From assembly GCA_031372565.1 (NCBI GenBank), contig JANMLN010000124.1:1-64000 (forward strand): a stretch of 64,000 nt of DNA. Reading direction: 5' to 3'. The notes under the pieces were generated by a model. The model saw nothing but the letters and a program-made list of their open reading frames with translations, ran no database searches and was not told where the DNA came from. Source of the DNA: Gemmatimonadota bacterium (GTDB lineage: Bacteria; Gemmatimonadota; Gemmatimonadetes; Gemmatimonadales; Gemmatimonadaceae). Both the position numbers and the translations under genes were made by a program. Numbering within the stretch: position 1 is the stretch's first letter; every line of letters starts with the position of its first letter. Of the stretch, positions 1,234 to 17,184 are shown in pieces.

Positions 1234-2635
1234 CCTCCACACCGCTGTCGTCCTGAGCGAAGCGAAGGACCTGCTTGTGCCCGTGAACACCGCTGTCATC
1301 CTGAGCGAAGCGAAGGACCTGCTTGTGCCCGTGAACACCGCTGTCATCCTGAGCGAAGCGAAGGATCTGCTTCTGCCCGTGAACACCGCTGTCATCCTGA
1401 GCGAAGCGAAGGATCTGCTTCTGCCCTTGGCCCCCCGCTCCGACTTCCCGTTACTCGCCGCCAACCCCACCCTCCACTACCTCGACTCCGCCGCCACCGC
1501 GCAAAAACCGCGCGTCGTCCTCGACGCCATCCGCGACTACTACGAGACCTCCTACGCCAACCCGCACCGCGGCGCGTACGCCCTCTCCGTGCTCGCCACC
1601 GATCGCTTCCACGCCGCCCGCGAGACCATCGCGCGCTTCTTCGGCGTGACCGACAGCGCGACGCTCATCTTCACCCGCGGTACGACCGAGTCGATCAACC
1701 TGGTGGCGAGCACCTGGGGGCGCGCCAACCTGTCGGCCGGCGACGAGGTGGTGACGACCGGCATGGAGCACCACGCGCAGTTCGTGACGTGGCAGCGGGC
1801 CGCGCGCGAGGCGGGCGCGGCGTTCAGGATTGCAGAGCTGACGCCGGACGTGCGCATCGACCTCGACCACCTGGCGTCGCTCCTGAACGAGAAGACGCGC
1901 GTCGTGGCATTCACGCATGTGTCGAACGCCGTGGGCACGATCAATCCGGTCGCCGAGATCGTGGCGATGGTGCGGGCCAAGGCACCCCGCGCGATCATCG
2001 TGCTGGACGGGGCGCAGTCGGCGCCGCATCTCGTGGTCGATTTCCCGAGCCTCGGCGTGGATTTCTACGCCTTCAGCGGCCACAAGCTGGGCGGGCCCAT
2101 GGGGATTGGCGTGCTGATCGGCCGTCGCGAGCTGCTCGAGGCGATGCCGCCGTACCAGACGGGCGGCGACATGATCGAGTTCGTGCATGACGACGTGAGC
2201 ACCTGGAACGTGCTGCCGTACAAGTTCGAGGCGGGAACGCCGAACGCGGCGGACGCGGTGGGGCTCGCGGCGGCGTGTGACTACCTGTCCGGGCTCGGCA
2301 TGGCGCACGTGCGCGCGCACGAGCGGGCGCTGACGATCGCGATGAGTGATGCGCTGGCGGCGATTCCCGGCGTGACGGTGTATGGGCCGGCGGCGGCAGA
2401 GCGGTCAGGGGTGGTGAGCTTCACGATGGCAGGGGCGCATCCGCACGATCTGGCGACCGTGCTGGATGAGCACGGGGTGTGCGTGCGGGCGGGGCATCAT
2501 TGTTGTCAGCCGTTGATGCGGCGGCTGGGAGTGAGTGCGACGGCGCGGGCGAGTGTGGGGATGTACACGACATCGGGCGATGTGGAGGCCGTAGCTGGCG
2601 GCGTGCGACGCGCCTGCGAGCTGTTCGGGACCTGA
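1226..2635 (+). CDS. sufS: SufS-family cysteine desulfurase with a repeat-derived N-terminal extension
   Basis: YLDSAATAQKP, FSGHK (PLP lysine), RAGHHC; an alternative TTG start lies at 1427, after the repeats. Confidence 0.95.
   Translation: MASLHTAVVLSEAKDLLVPVNTAVILSEAKDLLVPVNTAVILSEAKDLLLPVNTAVILSEAKDLLLPLAPRSDFPLLAANPTLHYLDSAATAQKPRVVLDAIRDYYETSYANPHRGAYALSVLATDRFHAARETIARFFGVTDSATLIFTRGTTESINLVASTWGRANLSAGDEVVTTGMEHHAQFVTWQRAAREAGAAFRIAELTPDVRIDLDHLASLLNEKTRVVAFTHVSNAVGTINPVAEIVAMVRAKAPRAIIVLDGAQSAPHLVVDFPSLGVDFYAFSGHKLGGPMGIGVLIGRRELLEAMPPYQTGGDMIEFVHDDVSTWNVLPYKFEAGTPNAADAVGLAAACDYLSGLGMAHVRAHERALTIAMSDALAAIPGVTVYGPAAAERSGVVSFTMAGAHPHDLATVLDEHGVCVRAGHHCCQPLMRRLGVSATARASVGMYTTSGDVEAVAGGVRRACELFGT
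1241..1426 (+). repeat. Four tandem 48-nt units (last truncated), each containing the REP-like core GTCRTCCTGAGCGAAGCGAAGGAYCT
   Basis: Units start at 1241, 1289, 1337 and 1385; they translate as TAVILSEAKDLLVPVN. Confidence 0.95.
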
Positions 2636-2736
2636 CGTCGCTCCACTGGCGCGGTTATCCTGCTTTCAGCCAAGGCGCCTCGCGGTACCCGAGCTTGCAA
2701 GGCTGTTGACCTGGGATCGAGATGAGCGCCTGAACG

Positions 2737-2853
2737 ATGCTCGAGGTCGGTGCGACTACATGCGAGGCCTTGGGGCGGTCGGCAGGATCAATCTGGAGAG
2801 GGTGGTGGGCGGCGGCGTTCGAGATTGAGCTGACGACGTTGTTCGCGGCGTAG
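2737..2853 (+). pseudogene. Possible decayed 3' end of a Uma2-family gene
   Basis: Ends ...IWRGWWAAAFEIELTTLFAA*, resembling the paralogue end ...RWHPQGAATPFEMSVAELFAPI*. Confidence 0.3.
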
Positions 2854-2915
2854 CTGAGCCGATCAACACCGAAACGTTCGGTTCGGCACGTCTACCGGAA
2901 GCTGCCGCAATGTTC

Positions 2916-3024
2916 TGTTGCACCCCGCGTGCGATTGGTGACGAGGAACCACTCGGGCATCGCTACGCTCAAGGATGCACCCCCCTTGCGCCTCCCCTCC
3001 CGCCGAGCCGACGTTATGCACATG
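2916..3024 (+). promoter_or_regulatory. Conserved Uma2 leader 1
   Basis: GGTGAC..ATGCACCCCCC-TTGCGC-N18(ending GCCGAGCC)-GACGTT-ATGCACATG. Confidence 0.7.
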
Positions 3025-3588
3025 GTCGCCCCAACCCACTGGACCGCGAACATGGTGCGCGCGCTGCCCGACGACGGCCAGCGCTACGAGACCATCGGCG
3101 GCGAGCTGCTCGTGAGCCCCGCACCGCGCGAACTGCACCAGCGGGTGCAGCTGCGACTGTTGCTCGCGATCGGGAACTATCTGGAGCGCGAGCCCGTCGG
3201 CGTGCTCTATCCGCCGCCGATCGACCTCTCGTGGAACGACCCCGACGTCACGGTGCAGCCGGACCTCACCGTCGTCGACATGGAGCAGGCGGCAACCGGC
3301 ATGTGGAACCGCATGACGCGCGTGTTGCTGGCGGTCGAGATCCTGAGCCCAGGGTCGGTGCGCGCCGATCGCGTGCTCAAGCGTCGGCTCTACCAGGCGA
3401 AAGGCGTTGCCGAGTACTGGATCGTGGATGCCGATGCGGCGCGCGTCGAGGTGGTGTCGCTCGGGCGCCCTGCGGGACATGTCGTGGACGAGGAACTGAC
3501 CTGGGCGCCACACGGCGCCACTGTCCCTCTCACAGTCGCTCTGCCGGCGCTCTTCGCACCCTTGGTCGCTCGGCGACATCCCGGCTGA
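3016..3588 (+). CDS. Uma2 (DUF820) PD-(D/E)XK-like endonuclease, copy 1 (true start may be the second ATG, 3022)
   Basis: RYETIGGELLVSPAP..H, QPD, VEILSPGS..DR..K..Y, YWIVD. Confidence 0.9.
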   Translation: MHMVAPTHWTANMVRALPDDGQRYETIGGELLVSPAPRELHQRVQLRLLLAIGNYLEREPVGVLYPPPIDLSWNDPDVTVQPDLTVVDMEQAATGMWNRMTRVLLAVEILSPGSVRADRVLKRRLYQAKGVAEYWIVDADAARVEVVSLGRPAGHVVDEELTWAPHGATVPLTVALPALFAPLVARRHPG

Positions 3589-3639
3589 CGCGCCTCACAG
3601 TATCAGCCGGGGAGTCTGCGTGTCGTTCGGTGCCGACTC

Positions 3640-4080
3640 CTACTCCGGCTTCGCGCTCATCTGCCACAAGCTGTACAACATCGGCACCACCGCCAGCCAC
3701 CCCACCACCGTCCAGCGCCGGTACGCCCGCTCGACGCGCGTATCCTCGCCCTTCCCCGCCTTGAGCATCATCACCTGCGCCGGGATGAGCAGCGCTGCCC
3801 ACAACACCGTCGACACGGCCAACCCCACCATCGCGCGCACGATCCACCCCGTGCTGAGCATCGGCACGCCTAGCTGCAACGCGCGGAAGACGCCGGTCAC
3901 CACGAGCAGCGAGCTCGCGCCAAGAGTGAAGATGATATCGGTGACCATGATCGCCCGTGCCGCCGGCGCGAACCCCTTGGCGCCGTGCTCGCGCCAGAGC
4001 GCGATGGCCCACACCCCGGTCACGATCACGTTGCCGAGGAGCAGGATGGCCGAGAGAATGTGCAGATACTTGAGCAGCAT
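3640..4080 (-). CDS. DUF2269-like integral membrane protein
   Basis: LKYLHILSAILLLG N-terminus, about 4 TM segments, C-terminal MSAKP. Confidence 0.75.
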   Translation of the reverse strand: MLLKYLHILSAILLLGNVIVTGVWAIALWREHGAKGFAPAARAIMVTDIIFTLGASSLLVVTGVFRALQLGVPMLSTGWIVRAMVGLAVSTVLWAALLIPAQVMMLKAGKGEDTRVERAYRRWTVVGWLAVVPMLYSLWQMSAKPE

Positions 4081-4165
4081 GCAGAAGTGTTACCGTATGG
4101 GTCTGTACGACAGCGCAGTGGCTGACGCGCACAGTGCGTGAAACTGGGGTGATTCGCAACAATCG

Positions 4166-4254
4166 GGTTACGGCGAAAGCTCCCTGTCGTGCGAGCTTCG
4201 CGCCATGCGTCCCTCTTGCGCTGTCCCCCCAGCCGAGCCGACAATATGCACATG
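4166..4254 (+). promoter_or_regulatory. Conserved Uma2 leader 2
   Basis: GGTTAC..ATGCGTCCCTC-TTGCGC-N18(ending GCCGAGCC)-GACAAT-ATGCACATG. Confidence 0.7.
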
Positions 4255-4794
4255 GTGGCCCCGCAATACTGGACCGCAGAGATGGTGCGCGCACTGCCTG
4301 ACGACGGCCTGCGCTACGAGACGGTGTACGGGGAGCTGCTCGTGAGCCCCGCGCCTCGGCCATGGCATCAGCTCGTGCTCTGGCGACTCGTCATGGCATT
4401 GGGCGCGTACCTCGAGCGAGAGCGTGTTGGTCAGCTGTTCTTCGCTCCTGCGGACATCTCCTGGAGCACCGACACGCTGGTGCAACCGGACTGCTTCGTG
4501 GTGGACCTCGAGCAGGCGCGCACGCTCGAGTGGGAACAGATGCAGCGCCTTCTCGTCGCCGTGGAGGTGCTGAGCCCGTCGTCGCTCACGGCCGATCGCT
4601 TCAACAAACGCGTGCTCTATCAGCGGCAGCAGATCGGCACGTACTGGGTGATCGACGCGGATGTCGGCACGGTCGAGACGTGGACGCCCGACGCGACCTT
4701 CCCGCTCTTCGCCAGCGAGCGCCTGGACTGGTACCCGGATGGCGCGAGCGTGCCCTTCAGTATGACGCTCGCGGAGCTTTTCCGGCCGATGTAG
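4246..4794 (+). CDS. Uma2 (DUF820) endonuclease, copy 2 (alternative start 4252)
   Basis: RYETVYGELLVSPAP..H, QPD, VEVLSPS, K, YWVID. Confidence 0.9.
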   Translation: MHMVAPQYWTAEMVRALPDDGLRYETVYGELLVSPAPRPWHQLVLWRLVMALGAYLERERVGQLFFAPADISWSTDTLVQPDCFVVDLEQARTLEWEQMQRLLVAVEVLSPSSLTADRFNKRVLYQRQQIGTYWVIDADVGTVETWTPDATFPLFASERLDWYPDGASVPFSMTLAELFRPM

Positions 4795-4865
4795 CGGGGC
4801 GTCGGTGCGCTGTGCCACCAGCGCGCGCATGATGCAACAGAATAATGCGCGTGATTTGGAGACGG

Positions 4866-4969
4866 TGTGCGTGATTCGCGTTACCAGCCCAACGCCCAAG
4901 CGGTGTACGCTGTCGCTCCATGCACACCACTTGCGCAGTTACCCTCGCCGAGCCGACAATATGGGCATG
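4866..4969 (+). promoter_or_regulatory. Conserved Uma2 leader 3
   Basis: CGTTAC..ATGCACACCAC-TTGCGC-N18(ending GCCGAGCC)-GACAAT-ATGGGCATG. Confidence 0.7.
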
Positions 4970-5512
4970 CCCGCTGCACAGGCGTACTGGACCGTGGACG
5001 AAATGCGCGCGCTTCCGGACGACGGGCGTCGTTACGAGGTCGTGCACGGGGAGTTGCTCGTGAGCCCGGGGCCCACGCTGCCGCATCAGGAGATCGCGGG
5101 GCGGCTGTATCGGCGCCTGTCTGACTATCTCGATGCGTTCGGCGGCGGACACTGTTTCATCGCCCCGACGTCGGTACGCGGCTCGGCGACCACCGAAGTC
5201 CAGCCCGACGTGCTCGTGCTCAAGCCCGGCGCGCGCCTCGACGCGAAGTGGGCGAACCTCACGGATCTTCTCCTCGCCATCGAGGTGGTGAGCCCGTCCA
5301 CCGCGCGCGCGGATCGCTTCGTGAAGCGGCGCCTCTTCCAAGAGGCCGGCTTACCTACCTACTGGATCGTGGACCCGGGCGAGAGCCTCGTGGAAATCTG
5401 GACGCCGCGCGACATGACCCCGCTACTCGAACGCGCCGCACTCACCTGGCGCGCGAGCGATGACGCACGCGCGCTCATTATTCCAATCGCAGAGCTGTTC
5501 GCACCGCTCTGA
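4961..5512 (+). CDS. Uma2 (DUF820) endonuclease, copy 3 (alternative start 4967)
   Basis: RYEVVHGELLVSPGP..H, QPD, IEVVSPS, K, YWIVDP. Confidence 0.9.
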   Translation: MGMPAAQAYWTVDEMRALPDDGRRYEVVHGELLVSPGPTLPHQEIAGRLYRRLSDYLDAFGGGHCFIAPTSVRGSATTEVQPDVLVLKPGARLDAKWANLTDLLLAIEVVSPSTARADRFVKRRLFQEAGLPTYWIVDPGESLVEIWTPRDMTPLLERAALTWRASDDARALIIPIAELFAPL

Positions 5513-5518
5513 ACGAGT

Positions 5519-5549
5519 TCGGCGGCCCCGGTTGATCCGAAGCCGCCGA
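5519..5549. terminator. Hairpin between convergent genes
   Basis: TCGGCGGC...GCCGCCGA inverted repeat, no U-tract. Confidence 0.4.
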
Positions 5550-5589
5550 GGCATGCGGGTGAAGCGTCACCACGCTACACACCACCGCA

Positions 5590-6927
5590 CTAAGCGCCGA
5601 TCTTGAACAGGATCAGCGTCGCTCCCATCCGCAGCTCCGCGCCGTCTTCCAAGCTCACCGGCTCCGTGACCACTTCGCCGTTGAGCAGCGTCCGGTTGGT
5701 CATCCCCTCGTTCTCCAGCACGAACCCGAACGTCTCGTCCCGCAGGATCTTCGCCTGCGCGGTCGACACGGTCGGATCGGTCAGCGGGAAATGATTGCGC
5801 CGCCCGCCCTCGCGCCCGATGAAGATGGTGTTGCTCCCGATCGGCATCTTCCGCCCCGCGTCCGGTCCCTCGACAATCTCGAGCCGCGCCCCGGTGTACT
5901 CGAATGGTTCCGTCTTGGGCGGACGCGGGTCGAACGGCTGCGTGATCGGCGCACCGCGCGCGGGCGGACGCGGCGGCAACGCGAACGGATTGGCGACCAT
6001 GGGTCCGCCGAGCACGGAGCGCTGCACGGGCACGGTGGGACGCGGCGCGCGCGACGGCTCGTTCGCAGCAGCTGCGGCTCCGTTCTCAGGCACGCTCGGA
6101 TGCTCGCCGGTCGTGCCGATCACCGGCGTTCCGCCCGGCGTCTGCCGCACGATGGGTGACCCGTTGGGCGTTGTGCGTGGCAGCGTGCCGGCACCCGGCG
6201 GGGGTCCCTTGGGTGGCGCCATCGGGCCATCGAGCGTCGGCCGGAACGCGCCACTCTGCCGCCCCTCCAGATTCGCCCACGGCATGTACACCGGTGGCGG
6301 CGCCATCCGCACAGGCCCACCAATGACGATGGGCACGGGCGGGCGCGCGGCATCGCTCGGGTCGACACCAGGCATCACGCGCGGCGCACGCTTGAGGAAA
6401 TAGAACAGCGCCCCGCCCAGCCCCAGCGCGATCAATCCCGAGATCGCCACGATCCAGAGCAACCACTGCGGCTTGTCGAGCGCCTCGCGTGACTTCTCCC
6501 GGATGATGGGAATGGTCGCGTTCTCGCGGCTGGGCACGACCACGCCGCGAATGCGAAGCACGCGCCCGGGCGCAGGCAAGTCGTCGCTCTCGACCGCGAT
6601 GCCGGTCGTGTCGGTGTAATCGACAAGCCGATACGTCCCCACCTGGCTCCCCGGCAGCGACGACTCCGCTCGTCCCACGAGCCCGGCGACATCGACTTCG
6701 AGGTTCCAGAACTTCTGCGGGTTGGCGCGGATCGCGGCGATCGAGTCCTGGGTTTGCGCGGAGAGAGGGAGGGAGAGGAGGGAGAGGAGGAGGAGGAGGG
6801 CGAGGGACAGAGCAAAAGCAGGTCCTTCGCTGCGCTCAGGACGACAAGCAGGTCCTCTGCTGCGCTCAGGACGACACGCAGGTCCTTCGCTACGCTCAGG
6901 ACGACGGAGGCGGGGAGATGGACGCAT
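5590..6927 (-). CDS. Membrane-anchored FHA-domain protein (signal peptide, extracytoplasmic domain, TM, Pro-rich linker, FHA)
   Basis: IFIGR...DPTVS..QA...TNRTLLNG...LEDGAELRMG; TGATG coupling to the PP2C stop. Confidence 0.85.
   Translation of the reverse strand: MRPSPRLRRPERSEGPACRPERSRGPACRPERSEGPAFALSLALLLLLSLLSLPLSAQTQDSIAAIRANPQKFWNLEVDVAGLVGRAESSLPGSQVGTYRLVDYTDTTGIAVESDDLPAPGRVLRIRGVVVPSRENATIPIIREKSREALDKPQWLLWIVAISGLIALGLGGALFYFLKRAPRVMPGVDPSDAARPPVPIVIGGPVRMAPPPVYMPWANLEGRQSGAFRPTLDGPMAPPKGPPPGAGTLPRTTPNGSPIVRQTPGGTPVIGTTGEHPSVPENGAAAAANEPSRAPRPTVPVQRSVLGGPMVANPFALPPRPPARGAPITQPFDPRPPKTEPFEYTGARLEIVEGPDAGRKMPIGSNTIFIGREGGRRNHFPLTDPTVSTAQAKILRDETFGFVLENEGMTNRTLLNGEVVTEPVSLEDGAELRMGATLILFKIGA
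6816..6905 (-). repeat. Three tandem 30-nt REP-like units inside the 5' end of the FHA gene
   Basis: AAGCAGGTCCTTCGCTGCGCTCAGGACGAC-type x3; translates as RPERSEGPAC. Confidence 0.9.
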
Positions 6928-14696: not shown

Positions 14697-15987
14697 GCTC
14701 TGGGCGGTGATCCGCCGCGAGTACCTCGAGCGCGTGCGCTCCAAGTGGTTCCTCATCGGCACCTTCCTGGGGCCGGTGTTCATGCTCGTGATCACGGTGC
14801 TGCCGGTCTGGCTGGCCACGCGCACCAAGGCGACGGCGGGCCTCACGAACATCCAGGTGCTGGACGCCACGCAGTCGCCGATCGGCGCGCGCGTCGTGGC
14901 CAAGCTCGGCGCCCTCCCGATCGAGGGCGGCGGCGGTACCACGCCCAAGCTCATGGTCGTTTCGGCGGCGGAACTGGGCAACGCCGAGGTGGTAGCCACC
15001 AAGGCCGTCATGGCCAAGGAGATCAAGGGCTACCTCGTGCTGAGCGGCGTGGCACCTGCGGACGTGAAGGTGCGCTATGCCGGGCGCAACGCGTCCACGG
15101 TGAACGACATGCAGCTCCTCCGCGATGCCGTGCGCACGAGCGTACTCGCGATGCGCCTGGAAGGCGCGGGACTCGATCCCGCGCGCATCAGCGAACTCAC
15201 CTCGGTGCGCGTGCCGATGGAAGAAGAGGTGCTGGATGATCGCGGTCGCGGGGGCGGCGGCTCGGGCAAGGGGTCGCTCATCGTCGGCTATCTGGTGTCG
15301 TTTCTGCTGTACATGATGATCGCGTTGTACGGGCAGAACATCCTGCGCGGCGTGATGGAGGAGAAGTCGACGCGCGTGGCCGAGGTGGTCGTCGCGAGCG
15401 TGCGTCCCGATGTGCTGCTCGCCGGCAAGGTGATCGGCGCAGGCGCGGTGGGCATCACGCAGCAACTGATCTGGATCATGTCCGGGGTGCTGATCTTCAC
15501 GCAGCGGGCCGCGCTGACCAAGGCCTTCGGGATCGCCGACCTGCCGTTCTCGCTGCCCACGATCGGGGCCGGGTTCCTCGCCGTGACGCTGCTGTACTAC
15601 ATCTTCGGCTTCCTGTTCTACGCCTCGCTTTTTGCGGCTGTGGGCGCGATGGTGAGCAACCAGGAAGATGCGCAGCAGGCGTCGATGCCGGTGACGGTCA
15701 TTCTCATCCTGAGCGTGATCTTCATGCAGCCGCTGCTGCTGGCGCCCAACGGCAACATGGCGCGCATCATGACGCTCGTGCCGAGTGCCTCGCCGGTGCT
15801 GATGCCACTGCGCATGAGCATGGTGGATGTGCCCGCGTGGGAGATTGCCCTGTCGCTCGTGCTGCTGGCGGGCGCGTGCGCCGTGTCCGTGTATCTCTCG
15901 GCGCGTGTGTATCGCGTGGGGTTGCTGATGTACGGCAAGAAGCCAAGCGTGGCAGAACTGATCCGCTGGATCCGTTACGCGGGGTGA
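14689..15987 (+). CDS. ABC-2 type permease (NatB-like)
   Basis: REYLERVRSK.F, VMEEK..R..E, GKV.G, multiple TMs. Confidence 0.9.
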   Translation: MGKLWAVIRREYLERVRSKWFLIGTFLGPVFMLVITVLPVWLATRTKATAGLTNIQVLDATQSPIGARVVAKLGALPIEGGGGTTPKLMVVSAAELGNAEVVATKAVMAKEIKGYLVLSGVAPADVKVRYAGRNASTVNDMQLLRDAVRTSVLAMRLEGAGLDPARISELTSVRVPMEEEVLDDRGRGGGGSGKGSLIVGYLVSFLLYMMIALYGQNILRGVMEEKSTRVAEVVVASVRPDVLLAGKVIGAGAVGITQQLIWIMSGVLIFTQRAALTKAFGIADLPFSLPTIGAGFLAVTLLYYIFGFLFYASLFAAVGAMVSNQEDAQQASMPVTVILILSVIFMQPLLLAPNGNMARIMTLVPSASPVLMPLRMSMVDVPAWEIALSLVLLAGACAVSVYLSARVYRVGLLMYGKKPSVAELIRWIRYAG

Positions 15988-16023
15988 GCGCACGACAAGC
16001 GCTCGTCGCGCCCGGCATGCGCA

Positions 16024-16133
16024 TGATGCACCGTGCGTGGTTTCGGTTACCTGATGTGAGAGCGGGGGAGGCATCGTTCGCGGATGCGTCCCCCTTGCTT
16101 TTTGCCCCCTGCCGAGCCGAACGTATGGTCATG
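16024..16133 (+). promoter_or_regulatory. Conserved Uma2 leader 4, with internal hairpin
   Basis: GGTTAC..GGGGGAGGCATC/GATGCGTCCCCC-TTGCTT-N18(ending GCCGAGCC)-GAACGT-ATGGTCATG. Confidence 0.7.
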
Positions 16134-16673
16134 GCCCAGACGCTCATGTGGACCGTGGAGATGGTCCAGGCGCTCCCGTCCGACGGGAACCGGTACGAAG
16201 TGGTGCGCGGGTCGTTGCTCGTGACTCCGGCGCCGACGTTTGGTCATCAGGATCTGGTCACCCGATTGCTGTACGCCCTGAAGAGGTACATGGAGCGCGA
16301 GCCGGGCGTCTATGTCGTCCTGTCACCTGCGGACGTGCTCTACGACGAACACACGGTCGTGCAGCCCGACCTGTTCGCGCTTCCGATCGCCGAGGCACGC
16401 AAGCGGGACTGGAAGCTGATGCGCGGGCTTCTGCTCGCCATCGAGGTGCTCAGCCCGTCCAGTGCGCGCAGCGACCTCGTCACGAAGCGGACGCTCTATC
16501 AGGAAGAGGGGGTGCCCCTCTACTGGATCGTCGACGCGGACCATGCGCGCGTTCTCGAGTGGACACCTGAGGCGACGGAGCCGATCGAGCGGCGCGACGT
16601 GCTGCGCTGGCATCCGCAGGGCGCAGCCACCCCGTTCGAGATGAGCGTGGCGGAGCTCTTCGCGCCGATCTGA
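16125..16673 (+). CDS. Uma2 (DUF820) endonuclease, copy 4 (alternative start 16131)
   Basis: RYEVVRGSLLVTPAP..H, QPD, IEVLSPS, K, YWIVD. Confidence 0.9.
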   Translation: MVMAQTLMWTVEMVQALPSDGNRYEVVRGSLLVTPAPTFGHQDLVTRLLYALKRYMEREPGVYVVLSPADVLYDEHTVVQPDLFALPIAEARKRDWKLMRGLLLAIEVLSPSSARSDLVTKRTLYQEEGVPLYWIVDADHARVLEWTPEATEPIERRDVLRWHPQGAATPFEMSVAELFAPI

Positions 16674-16698
16674 CGCAGCGGCCTGCATGCGTAAACGA

Positions 16699-16736
16699 CA
16701 GCGCGGCGGCGCCCCACCCGGGACGCCGCCGCGTTG
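16699..16736. terminator. GC-rich hairpin between convergent genes
   Basis: CAGCGCGGCGGCGCCCC / GGGACGCCGCCGCGTTG. Confidence 0.55.
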
Positions 16737-16752
16737 CTGCCATGACGCCCGC

Positions 16753-17184
16753 TTACGCCGTCTGCGGCTGCGCGCAGTACTTGTCGAACGCGGCCGTGAG
16801 GTCCGACGCGATCTCCGAGGCCATGCGCCCCTCGATCTGCCAGCGCTCGATCATGTGCACCAGCTGCCCGTCCTTGAGCAGCGCGATCGACGGTGAGCTC
16901 GGCGCGTAGCCGGTGAAGTAGCCGCGCGCGCGCGTGGTCGCGTCCATGTCCTGTCCGGCGAACACGGTGGTCACATGGTCGGGCTTGATGCCGTGCGCCA
17001 TGGCGGTGGCCACCGCCGGGCGCGCATTGCGGGCGGCGCACCCGCACACCGAGTTCACGACGATCATCGTCGTCCCGGGGCGCGAGACCGCCGCATCCAC
17101 CGCGTCCATCGTGCGCAGCTCTTCGACGCCCAGGCGCGTGAGCTCCTGCCGCATCGGGACGATCATCATTTCAGGGTAGTTCAT
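16753..17184 (-). CDS. BrxA/BrxB-family bacilliredoxin
   Basis: PMRQELT..G..EL, VNSVCGCAA..ARP, TVFAGQD, PSSPS.AL.K.G. Confidence 0.92.
   Translation of the reverse strand: MNYPEMMIVPMRQELTRLGVEELRTMDAVDAAVSRPGTTMIVVNSVCGCAARNARPAVATAMAHGIKPDHVTTVFAGQDMDATTRARGYFTGYAPSSPSIALLKDGQLVHMIERWQIEGRMASEIASDLTAAFDKYCAQPQTA

Follow-up and report, generated by a model that had tools for sequence, protein, structure and literature searches.

A conserved block upstream of one subfamily of Uma2 nuclease genes, with the probable layout of two stacked promoters

The locus analysed here raises the question of why several diverged genes for putative nucleases of the Uma2 family (PF05685, COG4636) should each keep the same upstream sequence of about 110 nt. 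The window, a stretch of 64,000 nt corresponding to positions 1 to 64,000 of contig C4 in a 4.44-Mb assembly of 201 contigs (68.4% G+C) from freshwater sediment, holds four such genes, a fifth lies on another contig of the same genome, and the upstream block is common to all five. An earlier note, made from the letters of the window alone, had described the four window genes as an array with a leader of conserved spacing, and had proposed a nuclease-plus-leader unit that spreads as a module, a dedicated regulon or an associated non-coding RNA (ncRNA). On the evidence assembled below, the block is probably a pair of stacked promoters, which we call P1 (distal) and P2 (proximal), and so a regulatory sequence that acts as DNA rather than a transcribed leader. 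Paired start signals of this kind, one private to these genes and the other shared with genes of DNA uptake, would offer a first testable hint of what Uma2 nucleases do.

A block common to five Uma2 genes and its distribution

The five genes are the following.

Copy 1: 3016 to 3588, forward strand, Uma2 gene of 191 codons counted from the first ATG (PF05685, E-value 3.3e-27)
Copy 2: 4246 to 4794, forward strand, Uma2 gene (PF05685, E-value 1.2e-23)
Copy 3: 4961 to 5512, forward strand, Uma2 gene (PF05685, E-value 6.1e-27)
Copy 4: 16125 to 16673, forward strand, Uma2 gene (PF05685, E-value 2.1e-26)
Copy 5: contig C81, 16999 to 17544, outside the window, Uma2 gene absent from the earlier note (101.4 bits against PF05685)

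All five exceed the Pfam cut-off for Uma2 of 27 bits, the window copies scoring 83.9-95.5 bits, and their proteins are 38-55% identical to one another. The PD, E and K residues that the earlier note had reported as kept do align in every copy, as QPD, E[IV][LV]SP and the lysine of DRxxKR; the assignment of the catalytic lysine in this family follows PMC551604. Upstream, each copy carries in the same order GGTKAC (CGTTAC in copy 3), ATGCRY, 5 nt, TTGCNN, 18 nt, GANNNT and ATGNNNATG. The positions of TTGC in the window (2986, 4216, 4931 and 16095) are as claimed, ATGCRY-N5-TTGC is found in 4/4 window copies, and in all four TTGCNN is followed by exactly 18 nt with GCCGAGCC at their end. The next hexamer reads GACGTT, GACAAT, GACAAT and GAACGT in copies 1 to 4, and the ATG-NNN-ATG start, ATGNNNATG, lies at 3016, 4246, 4961 and 16125. 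The only wrong number in that description concerns SGTKAC, which is present before ATGCRY but at 38-41 nt start to start (32-35 nt between the two) and not at 43-46 nt. Copy 5 has the same leader as the window copies, but with GCCGAGAC. Divided into the two candidate promoters, the blocks of the window read as follows.

Copy 1, P1: 2927 to 2977, forward strand, GC-N8-GGTGAC (2937-2942), 21 nt, TACGCT (2964-2969), 5 nt, ATGC (2975)
Copy 1, P2: 2985 to 3024, forward strand, CTTGCG (TTGC at 2986), GCCGAG 3002-3007, GACGTT 3010-3015, ATG 3016, ATG 3022 (predicted transcription start and start codon)
Copy 2, P1: 4156 to 4207, forward strand, GC-N8-GGTTAC (4166-4171), 21 nt, GAGCTT, 6 nt, ATGC (4205)
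Copy 2, P2: 4215 to 4254, forward strand, CTTGCG (TTGC at 4216), GCCGAG 4232-4237, GACAAT 4240-4245, ATG 4246, ATG 4252
Copy 3, P1, weaker (matrix score 10.4): 4879 to 4922, forward strand, CGTTAC (4879-4884), 21 nt, TACGCT, 8 nt, ATGC (4920)
Copy 3, P2: 4930 to 4969, forward strand, CTTGCG (TTGC at 4931), GCCGAG 4947-4952, GACAAT 4955-4960, ATG 4961, ATG 4967
Copy 4, P1 (matrix score 13.4): 16035 to 16086, forward strand, GC-N8-GGTTAC (16045-16050), 21 nt, CATCGT, 6 nt, ATGC (16084)
Copy 4, P2: 16094 to 16133, forward strand, CTTGCT (TTGC at 16095), GCCGAG 16111-16116, GAACGT 16119-16124, ATG 16125, ATG 16131

The earlier note had said that its reading would fall if the leaders of the paralogues were no more alike than their synonymous sites, and the comparison goes the other way. 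Among the five genes the 45 nt before the ATG have a mean identity of 0.69 (0.30 expected), compared with 0.45 at fourfold-degenerate sites, which are saturated (composition alone predicts 0.37). The leader thus has a constraint of its own.

The proximal half of the block is specific to these genes. TTGC-N10-14-GCCGAG-N2-[TG]ANNNT has five occurrences in the whole assembly, both strands counted, each before a Uma2 gene. Among 41 related genomes, PF05685 matches were found and retrieved at 140 places in 30 genomes, and when stop-to-stop open reading frames (ORFs) were scored against a profile of the five copies, 92 belonged to the same Uma2 subfamily, 83 of them with an in-frame [AG]TGNNNATG. 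In these 83 genes, TTGC stands exactly 30 nt before the first ATG in 72, the hexamer adjoining that ATG has A at position 2 and T at position 6 in 76, and GCCGAG lies 10-22 nt before the ATG in 69; a pyrimidine directly precedes the second ATG in 78/82. The pattern TTGCN{8,12}GCCGAGN{3,7}ANNNTATG returned 57 matches in the 41 genomes against 2 for the reversed control, every one of them 33 nt long although 29-37 nt were permitted, and each with a same-strand Uma2 match no more than 200 nt downstream of it. A search of related loci with a single protein as query had returned one irrelevant locus (L031).

Across 401 genomes sampled from the phylum, the P2 pattern was present in 145, with about 378 matches against about 36 in the control. 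It was found in 48/93 genomes of family f1, 88/166 of f2, 3/5 of f3 and 5/117 of the other five families of the class, and in 0/19 genomes of other classes; the proximal motif is confined to one order of a lineage that is probably Gemmatimonadota. The nearest protein clusters of Uma2 copy 2 are likewise mostly from Gemmatimonadota, which is a lead to the lineage and not a proof of it. In a set of 30 further loci, 28 of 31 P2 sites were followed by a Uma2 ORF and the other three by ORFs of 21-36 codons. The 41-genome counts include one unpublished genome (G012) and the 401-genome and 30-locus counts another (G086), and no claim depends on these alone. Both promoters, if correctly read, would have been kept by each gene of one Uma2 subfamily since before the order diversified. 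The dedicated regulon offered by the earlier note is supported by these results and takes a sharper form, in which the proximal block is private to one Uma2 subfamily and the distal box, as described below, is common to DNA-uptake and nuclease genes.

The proximal candidate promoter and its GCCGAG box

The sequence CTTGCS, 18 nt, nAnnnT, ATGNNY, ATG has the geometry expected of a promoter for a leaderless mRNA. For ORFs of this genome that span 120 codons or more, the distance from TAnnnT to the ATG has a peak at 6 nt (121 cases) and 7 nt (100 cases) over a background of about 20-45; about 200 other genes share this peak, and more distant Uma2 groups carry TATACT-CGGCGC-ATG. The P2 hexamer adjoins the first ATG and therefore lies 6 nt before the second, which a pyrimidine precedes; from the genome-wide geometry we infer that transcription from P2 starts at the A of the second ATG. 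Under this proposal CTTGCS would be a weak -35 element, separated by a C-rich spacer of 18 nt from the -10 element nAnnnT, and the message would begin with the second ATG itself. For annotators this would give a start-codon rule for these Uma2 genes, namely the second ATG on a leaderless mRNA, and the finding would add a new class of promoter for a phylum that has been little studied. The general -35 element of the genome is TTGAC with a 17-nt spacer; P2 has TTGC at 18-nt spacing, of which only TTG matches the consensus. The deviations are themselves conserved, the fourth -35 base being C in 75/82 genes (A in 4/82) and the first -10 base T in only 14/82, and in the hexamer only the A and the last T are fixed. 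Such conserved departures from TTGACA and TAnnnT fit a promoter kept weak on purpose and under regulation, as would suit a nuclease that may be toxic. That COG4636 nucleases, being potentially harmful, need tight control has already been postulated (PMC551604).

Two readings of the block as part of the transcript or of the protein were weighed at this point. An N-terminal coding extension that begins at the TTG of CTTGC is suggested, since in 5/5 copies this codon shares the frame of the first ATG and precedes it by 10 codons. However, an in-frame TAG separates TTG and ATG in L020, L024 and L107, the members with ...GTAGCGTATG and ...GTAGCCTATG are interrupted by TAG in the same way, GCCGAG occurs in all three phases (12, 14, 15, 16, 17 and 18 nt before the ATG), and the TTG has no preceding Shine-Dalgarno sequence. 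To judge from the sequences, this reading is already contradicted, and we give it virtually no probability.

The second holds that the leader is a structured RNA, be it a cis-regulatory 5' untranslated region, a riboswitch-like element or a small RNA from the distal promoter. Conservation of about 110 nt ahead of a gene family would suit it, as would the strong hairpin of the copy-4 clade, with its compensatory changes, and the palindromes that surround CATGC in some relatives. The copy-4 hairpin has a folding z-score of -3.4 here and of -3.7 to -6.0 in L021, L063, L085 and L109; it is kept with compensatory changes among the copy-4 orthologues but is not family-wide.

Copy 4, strong hairpin: 16064 to 16094, forward strand, GGGGGAGGCATC...GATGCGTCCCCC, which abuts CTTGC and is followed by TTGCTTTTTG; terminator-like

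An Rfam scan of 2700-5700 at E-values up to 10 gave no match, only four chance-level rows. Furthermore, the 82 leaders have a mean folding z-score of -0.55, with 13/82 below -2, and the local windows a mean of -0.77, with 11/73 below -2 and these concentrated in few clades. The conserved columns are those of the -35, the -10 and the start, the C-rich spacer has no partner strand, and the conserved block would be untranscribed if P2 is used. We therefore regard a structured RNA as extremely unlikely, and the associated ncRNA of the earlier note is not borne out, since Rfam gave no match, no fold is family-wide and the conserved positions fit promoter geometry. Separately, another hairpin at 16018-16039, the first between the ABC-2 permease gene (which ends at 15987) and copy 4, was scored as terminator-like in the scan.

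The element of P2 that calls for its own explanation is GCCGAG. The earlier note had held that a leaderless promoter explains the proximal part but not the invariant box; the geometry does fit, and the box is a separate, family-specific element within the spacer. It lies most often 2 nt before the -10: among 62 genes with the box the gap to the hexamer is 2 nt in 33, 0 nt in 10, 5-6 nt in 12 and -3, 3 or 4 nt in 7. The box floats while the distance from the -35 to the start is rigid, and for this reason it looks like the site of a regulator; it is too mobile for a contact of the sigma factor. Most likely it would be the operator of a putative family-specific regulator. It is present in 37/40 genes that have P1 and 25/33 that lack it, and is repeated in tandem (GCCGAGCCGAG) in 9/73.

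Two further interpretations of the box were tried and set aside. As half of a palindrome, GCCGAG would require CTCGG..CCGAG, which occurs in only 3/73 genes of the relatives' set, yet is common among the family f2 rows listed (CTCGGC(G)CCGAG). As a Shine-Dalgarno sequence for P1 transcripts it would be weak, for 43/62 boxes are followed by C and not G, and the box is present in 25/33 genes without P1. The 16S rRNA, wanted for its anti-Shine-Dalgarno tail, was not found in the 96%-complete assembly.

Elsewhere in this genome, GCCGAG-N2-hexamer is convincing before only one gene besides Uma2, a fimT-like pilin gene, whose promoter reads GCCGAG-N2-GAAGCT or GCCGAG-N2-GATGCT in three genomes of the genus. 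A gene start near 16251 of contig C53 (reverse strand, 229-aa ORF) is preceded by GCCGAGCCGATACT, the box-plus-hexamer of the relatives' Uma2 P2; the case is doubtful, as TTGC is missing and the element lies 9 nt before the ATG. A distant Uma2 subgroup (L043, L050 and L110; G013) has a conserved upstream word of its own, (A)TGTCGCATT, 30-45 nt before a canonical leaderless promoter of the form TATACT-N6-ATG. Uma2 clades seem to differ in private upstream boxes.

The distal candidate promoter and the genes that share its box

The distal half of the block, GC-N8-GGTKAC, 21 nt, nAnnnT, 5-6 nt, ATGC, would constitute the second promoter. An [AG]TGC box is present in 49 of the 73 genes with TTG at -30, at -41 in 22 and at -38 in 18, and nAnnnT ends 5-6 nt before it in 40/49, with other offsets accounting for 0-9 genes each, mostly 0-3. 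A GGTKAC-type box stands 21 nt before the hexamer in all five copies of the genome, and in four or five gene families GGTKAC occupies -27 to -22 from the start of the -10, overlapping the -35 region, a placement like that of the binding site in class II (CRP/FNR-like) promoters that depend on an activator. The pooled matrix consists of GC, an A/T-rich stretch and GGTKAC; it has no clear second half-site and no clear dyad, and only within the genus does the box read GTGA-N6-TTAC.

In this genome the box, its spacing and a leaderless ATG recur before a ComEA-type gene (HHH_3), a FimT/GspH-like minor pilin gene, a second pilin-like gene and the gene for a YraN (UPF0102) nuclease. When the 217,645 nAnnnT sites of this genome were scored with a matrix whose 91 training sites all came from relatives, four reached at least 13: those of comEA, Uma2 copy 2 (second-best), the pilin-like gene and Uma2 copy 4. 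The strict pattern GCN8GGTKACN21NANNNTN5-6ATG gave 41 matches in the 41 genomes against 2 in the control, and 22 of the 41 fall at Uma2 (8), comEA (3), fimT-like (2), pilin-like (1), yraN (1), comM (2), PDDEXK_3 (1), MmeI-like (1) and 23S_rRNA_IVP (3) genes. Counting a match as 5 or 6 of 6 box positions among orthologues from the 41 relatives, the box is matched in 25/30 yraN genes (30/30 leaderless), 10/15 comEA genes (leaderless-type starts only), 7/14 fimT-like genes, 16/31 comM genes and 31/40 Uma2 P1 regions. Generic leaderless candidates of this genome match at 5/6 in 10/106 and at 6/6 in none, and all TAnnnT sites in 6.9%; the P1 box is not the general -35.

The same box at the same spacing would therefore tie Uma2 to a regulon of DNA uptake and DNA processing, in which P1-type promoters would drive leaderless comEA, comM, the fimT-like pilin, yraN and other nuclease genes, with control probably exerted by an activator at the -35 region. 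The sharing suggests a regulon of the DNA-uptake type, from which we infer the link to competence. In relatives, multi-copy genes for 23S_rRNA_IVP four-helix-bundle proteins (G011, contigs C40 and C49; G025, C20), a PDDEXK_3 nuclease gene and an MmeI-like restriction-modification gene (G011, C4; G003, C197) also have a P1-type box and a leaderless start. An independent hint comes from Thermus, whose competence pilin locus pilA-comZ holds DUF820 nucleases (PMC5529391).

The ATG at the P1 start admits another interpretation, in which it opens a gene of about 46 codons that overlaps the Uma2 start out of frame. The frame would be translated from the P1 message, itself leaderless, and would serve as a gate on translation, or its product as a regulatory peptide or as an antidote to the nuclease. 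In comEA, comM, yraN and the fimT-like genes the ATG behind the P1-type promoter is the true start codon; the frame has 46 codons in copies 1, 2, 4 and 5 and 46-47 in three relatives; the [AG]TGC box lies at 35, 38, 41, 44 or 47 nt, all one phase, in 45/49 genes; and A never appears at the two positions where it would make TGA in frame (0/82 each). Uma2 has moreover been called a likely solo toxin (PMC2701414). Against these points, the information content of the spacer has no three-base periodicity, a G+C content of 68% leaves many alternative frames open, the phase classes track clades so that few independent events stand behind the 45/49, 14/49 boxes begin with GTG, 24/73 genes have no box, and the length is set by the conserved spacing together with a stop inside the conserved LVSP codons. 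Taking both sides together, we consider such a gene distinctly unlikely.

Several observations weigh against the reading as two stacked promoters. The related genomes are not independent samples. A simple sigma-70 consensus scan found 0 promoter-like sites in 2600-5700 and 15800-16800, and P2 scores about 7/12 against TTGACA/TATAAT; both promoters thus depart from the canonical form, and the sigma factor that reads them could be a different one. The reading leaves the conservation of the first ATG without explanation, and GCCGAG floats, mostly 0 to 6 nt from the -10, with a reader protein that is hypothetical. For P1, the [AG]TGC box is missing from 24/73 genes of the subfamily, the GGTKAC-type box is low in information, 19 of the 41 strict matches are unexplained or intragenic, and dprA, comEC and 19 of the 21 pilin-like genes of this genome lack it, so that a competence regulon would be incomplete at best.

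A dedicated alternative sigma factor could read P2 or both promoters, with CTTGC and GCCGAG as its contacts. The conserved departures from the genome's consensus at the fourth -35 base and the first -10 base and the lack of a canonical promoter in the scan are in keeping with it, and in the commonest class the end of GCCGAGCC is 7 nt before the first ATG, a spacing that could account for the double ATG. The -10 of sigma-28-type promoters, with which GCCGAG was compared, is GCCGATAA. However, GCCGAG shifts with respect both to TTGC (N8 to N12) and to the -10 (0 to 6 nt) while TTGC-to-ATG is fixed at 30, an invariant A and T, as in this hexamer, are the hallmark of primary-type sigma factors, and the fimT-like promoter GCCGAG-N2-GAAGCT has no ATG where one would be predicted. 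On balance an alternative sigma factor is rather unlikely. A sigma-54 reading of ATGCRY-N5-TTGC was rejected, because it has no GG where the -24 element would need one, and because clades differ in how far the box stands from TTGC.

With the two stacked promoters as the preferred reading, a broader model can be put forward, which on sequence evidence we hold only tentatively and consider doubtful in its entirety. In this order of Gemmatimonadota, Uma2, YraN and PDDEXK_3 nucleases and 23S_rRNA_IVP proteins may belong to a natural-transformation programme, in which an activator acting at GGTKAC would induce them along with comEA, comM and a minor pilin that binds DNA, and a second switch, private to the family and formed by GCCGAG on P2, possibly with the 46-codon frame, would silence the nuclease at other times. 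If this model is true, Uma2 would process, restrict or recombine DNA while uptake is under way, be that DNA incoming or resident.

Copy gain and loss, and relation to known systems

The module proposed by the earlier note is best judged by how the copies are gained and lost. Leader and gene could form a mobile or selfish cassette, with the block as its end or target site, and Feder and Bujnicki put forward the idea that COG4636 genes are selfish elements (PMC551604). At the syntenic sites copy 1 is absent in G003 and G004, copy 3 is absent in G004, the order of the copies differs in G002, and expansions are lineage-specific. However, no conservation was found 3' of the genes, and the indel of about 1 kb that contains copy 1 is ragged, has neither repeats nor clean ends and spans about 270 nt beyond the leader. 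The paralogues have orthologues across the genus in a quick tree, their synonymous sites are saturated, and one G002 copy stands 17 nt behind another with its leader absent. A mobile cassette is thus very unlikely, and the pattern fits tandem duplication and deletion in arrays, not transposition. What stands of the module is the gain and loss of copies within the genus; transposition is not supported, as no conserved 3' end was found, the presence/absence site has no clean ends and the paralogues are old. The G002 copy in question (L089, contig C718), the middle one and copy-1-like, begins 17 nt after the preceding Uma2 stop, has ATC for the first ATG and is apparently operonic, with the look of a natural variant that is promoter-less.

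The four window copies all lie on the forward strand, but the array of the earlier note is not strictly tandem, for a gene for a DUF2269 membrane protein (3640-4080, opposite strand) separates copies 1 and 2. The genes around the copies are unrelated, encoding a class-V aminotransferase, the DUF2269 protein, an FHA protein, an ABC-2 permease and a disulphide-isomerase-like protein. A tandem unit of about 47 nt with a hairpin-forming core (...CCTGAGCGAAGCGAAGGA...) occurs at 1239-1430 (forward, about 4 copies) and 6815-6905 (inverse, about 3), one set on each side of the segment that holds Uma2 copies 1-3. Pieces of 33-40 nt of this unit recur by the dozen at 95-100% identity in both orientations across genomes of the same genus, and the unit is an interspersed intergenic repeat family. 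Owing to these repeats, the aminotransferase and FHA ORFs probably appear longer at their N-termini than they are.

The fold of Uma2 (COG4636) and the label 'putative nuclease' date from 2005 (PMC551604). Accounts of a 'selfish' nuclease or a 'solo toxin' (Feder and Bujnicki 2005, PMC551604; Makarova et al. 2009, PMC2701414) treat the same family with its multiple paralogues and cassettes; in the consulted parts of those papers, unlike here, neither partners nor regulation appear, whereas we propose a conserved control region and co-regulated genes. The parts consulted of the Uma2 literature, including PMC1274311, PMC2701414 and PMC551604, describe no function, partner or regulation that we found. 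Nothing on a conserved control region was found in the literature on Uma2, DUF820, COG4636 or PF05685, and nothing on promoters, leaderless mRNAs, competence control or a competence box in that searched for Gemmatimonadota. A conserved control region makes the purpose of Uma2 expansions experimentally approachable.

Three known types of control bear comparison with the block. The leaderless promoters of Deinococcus-Thermus, Actinobacteria and other bacteria have the -10 hexamer 6-7 nt before the start codon, and P2 and P1 of Uma2 likewise place nAnnnT 5-7 nt before an ATG. P2 differs from them in its conserved TTGC at the -35, the non-T first base of the -10, the extra ATG in the discriminator and GCCGAG, and the Uma2 block as a whole in having two such putative promoters stacked 41 nt apart.

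In the competence regulons of Haemophilus, Vibrio and E. coli, CRP-S/Sxy sites precede comEA (comE1), comM and pilin genes. The P1 box is similar in that it stands at a fixed distance from the start, overlaps the -35 and is common to comEA, comM and the fimT-like pilin gene. Unlike a CRP-S site, GC-N8-GGTKAC has no clear dyad, dprA and comEC are without it, the genes are leaderless, and the set that shares P1 includes Uma2, YraN and PDDEXK_3 nucleases and 23S_rRNA_IVP proteins. The radiation/desiccation response motif of Deinococcus is the operator of DdrO and lies near the start of DNA-repair genes. There as here, a lineage-specific cis motif near the start unites genes of DNA metabolism in an organism rich in leaderless mRNAs; the two differ in sequence, most members of the present set have no palindrome, and GCCGAG is nearly private to one paralogous family.

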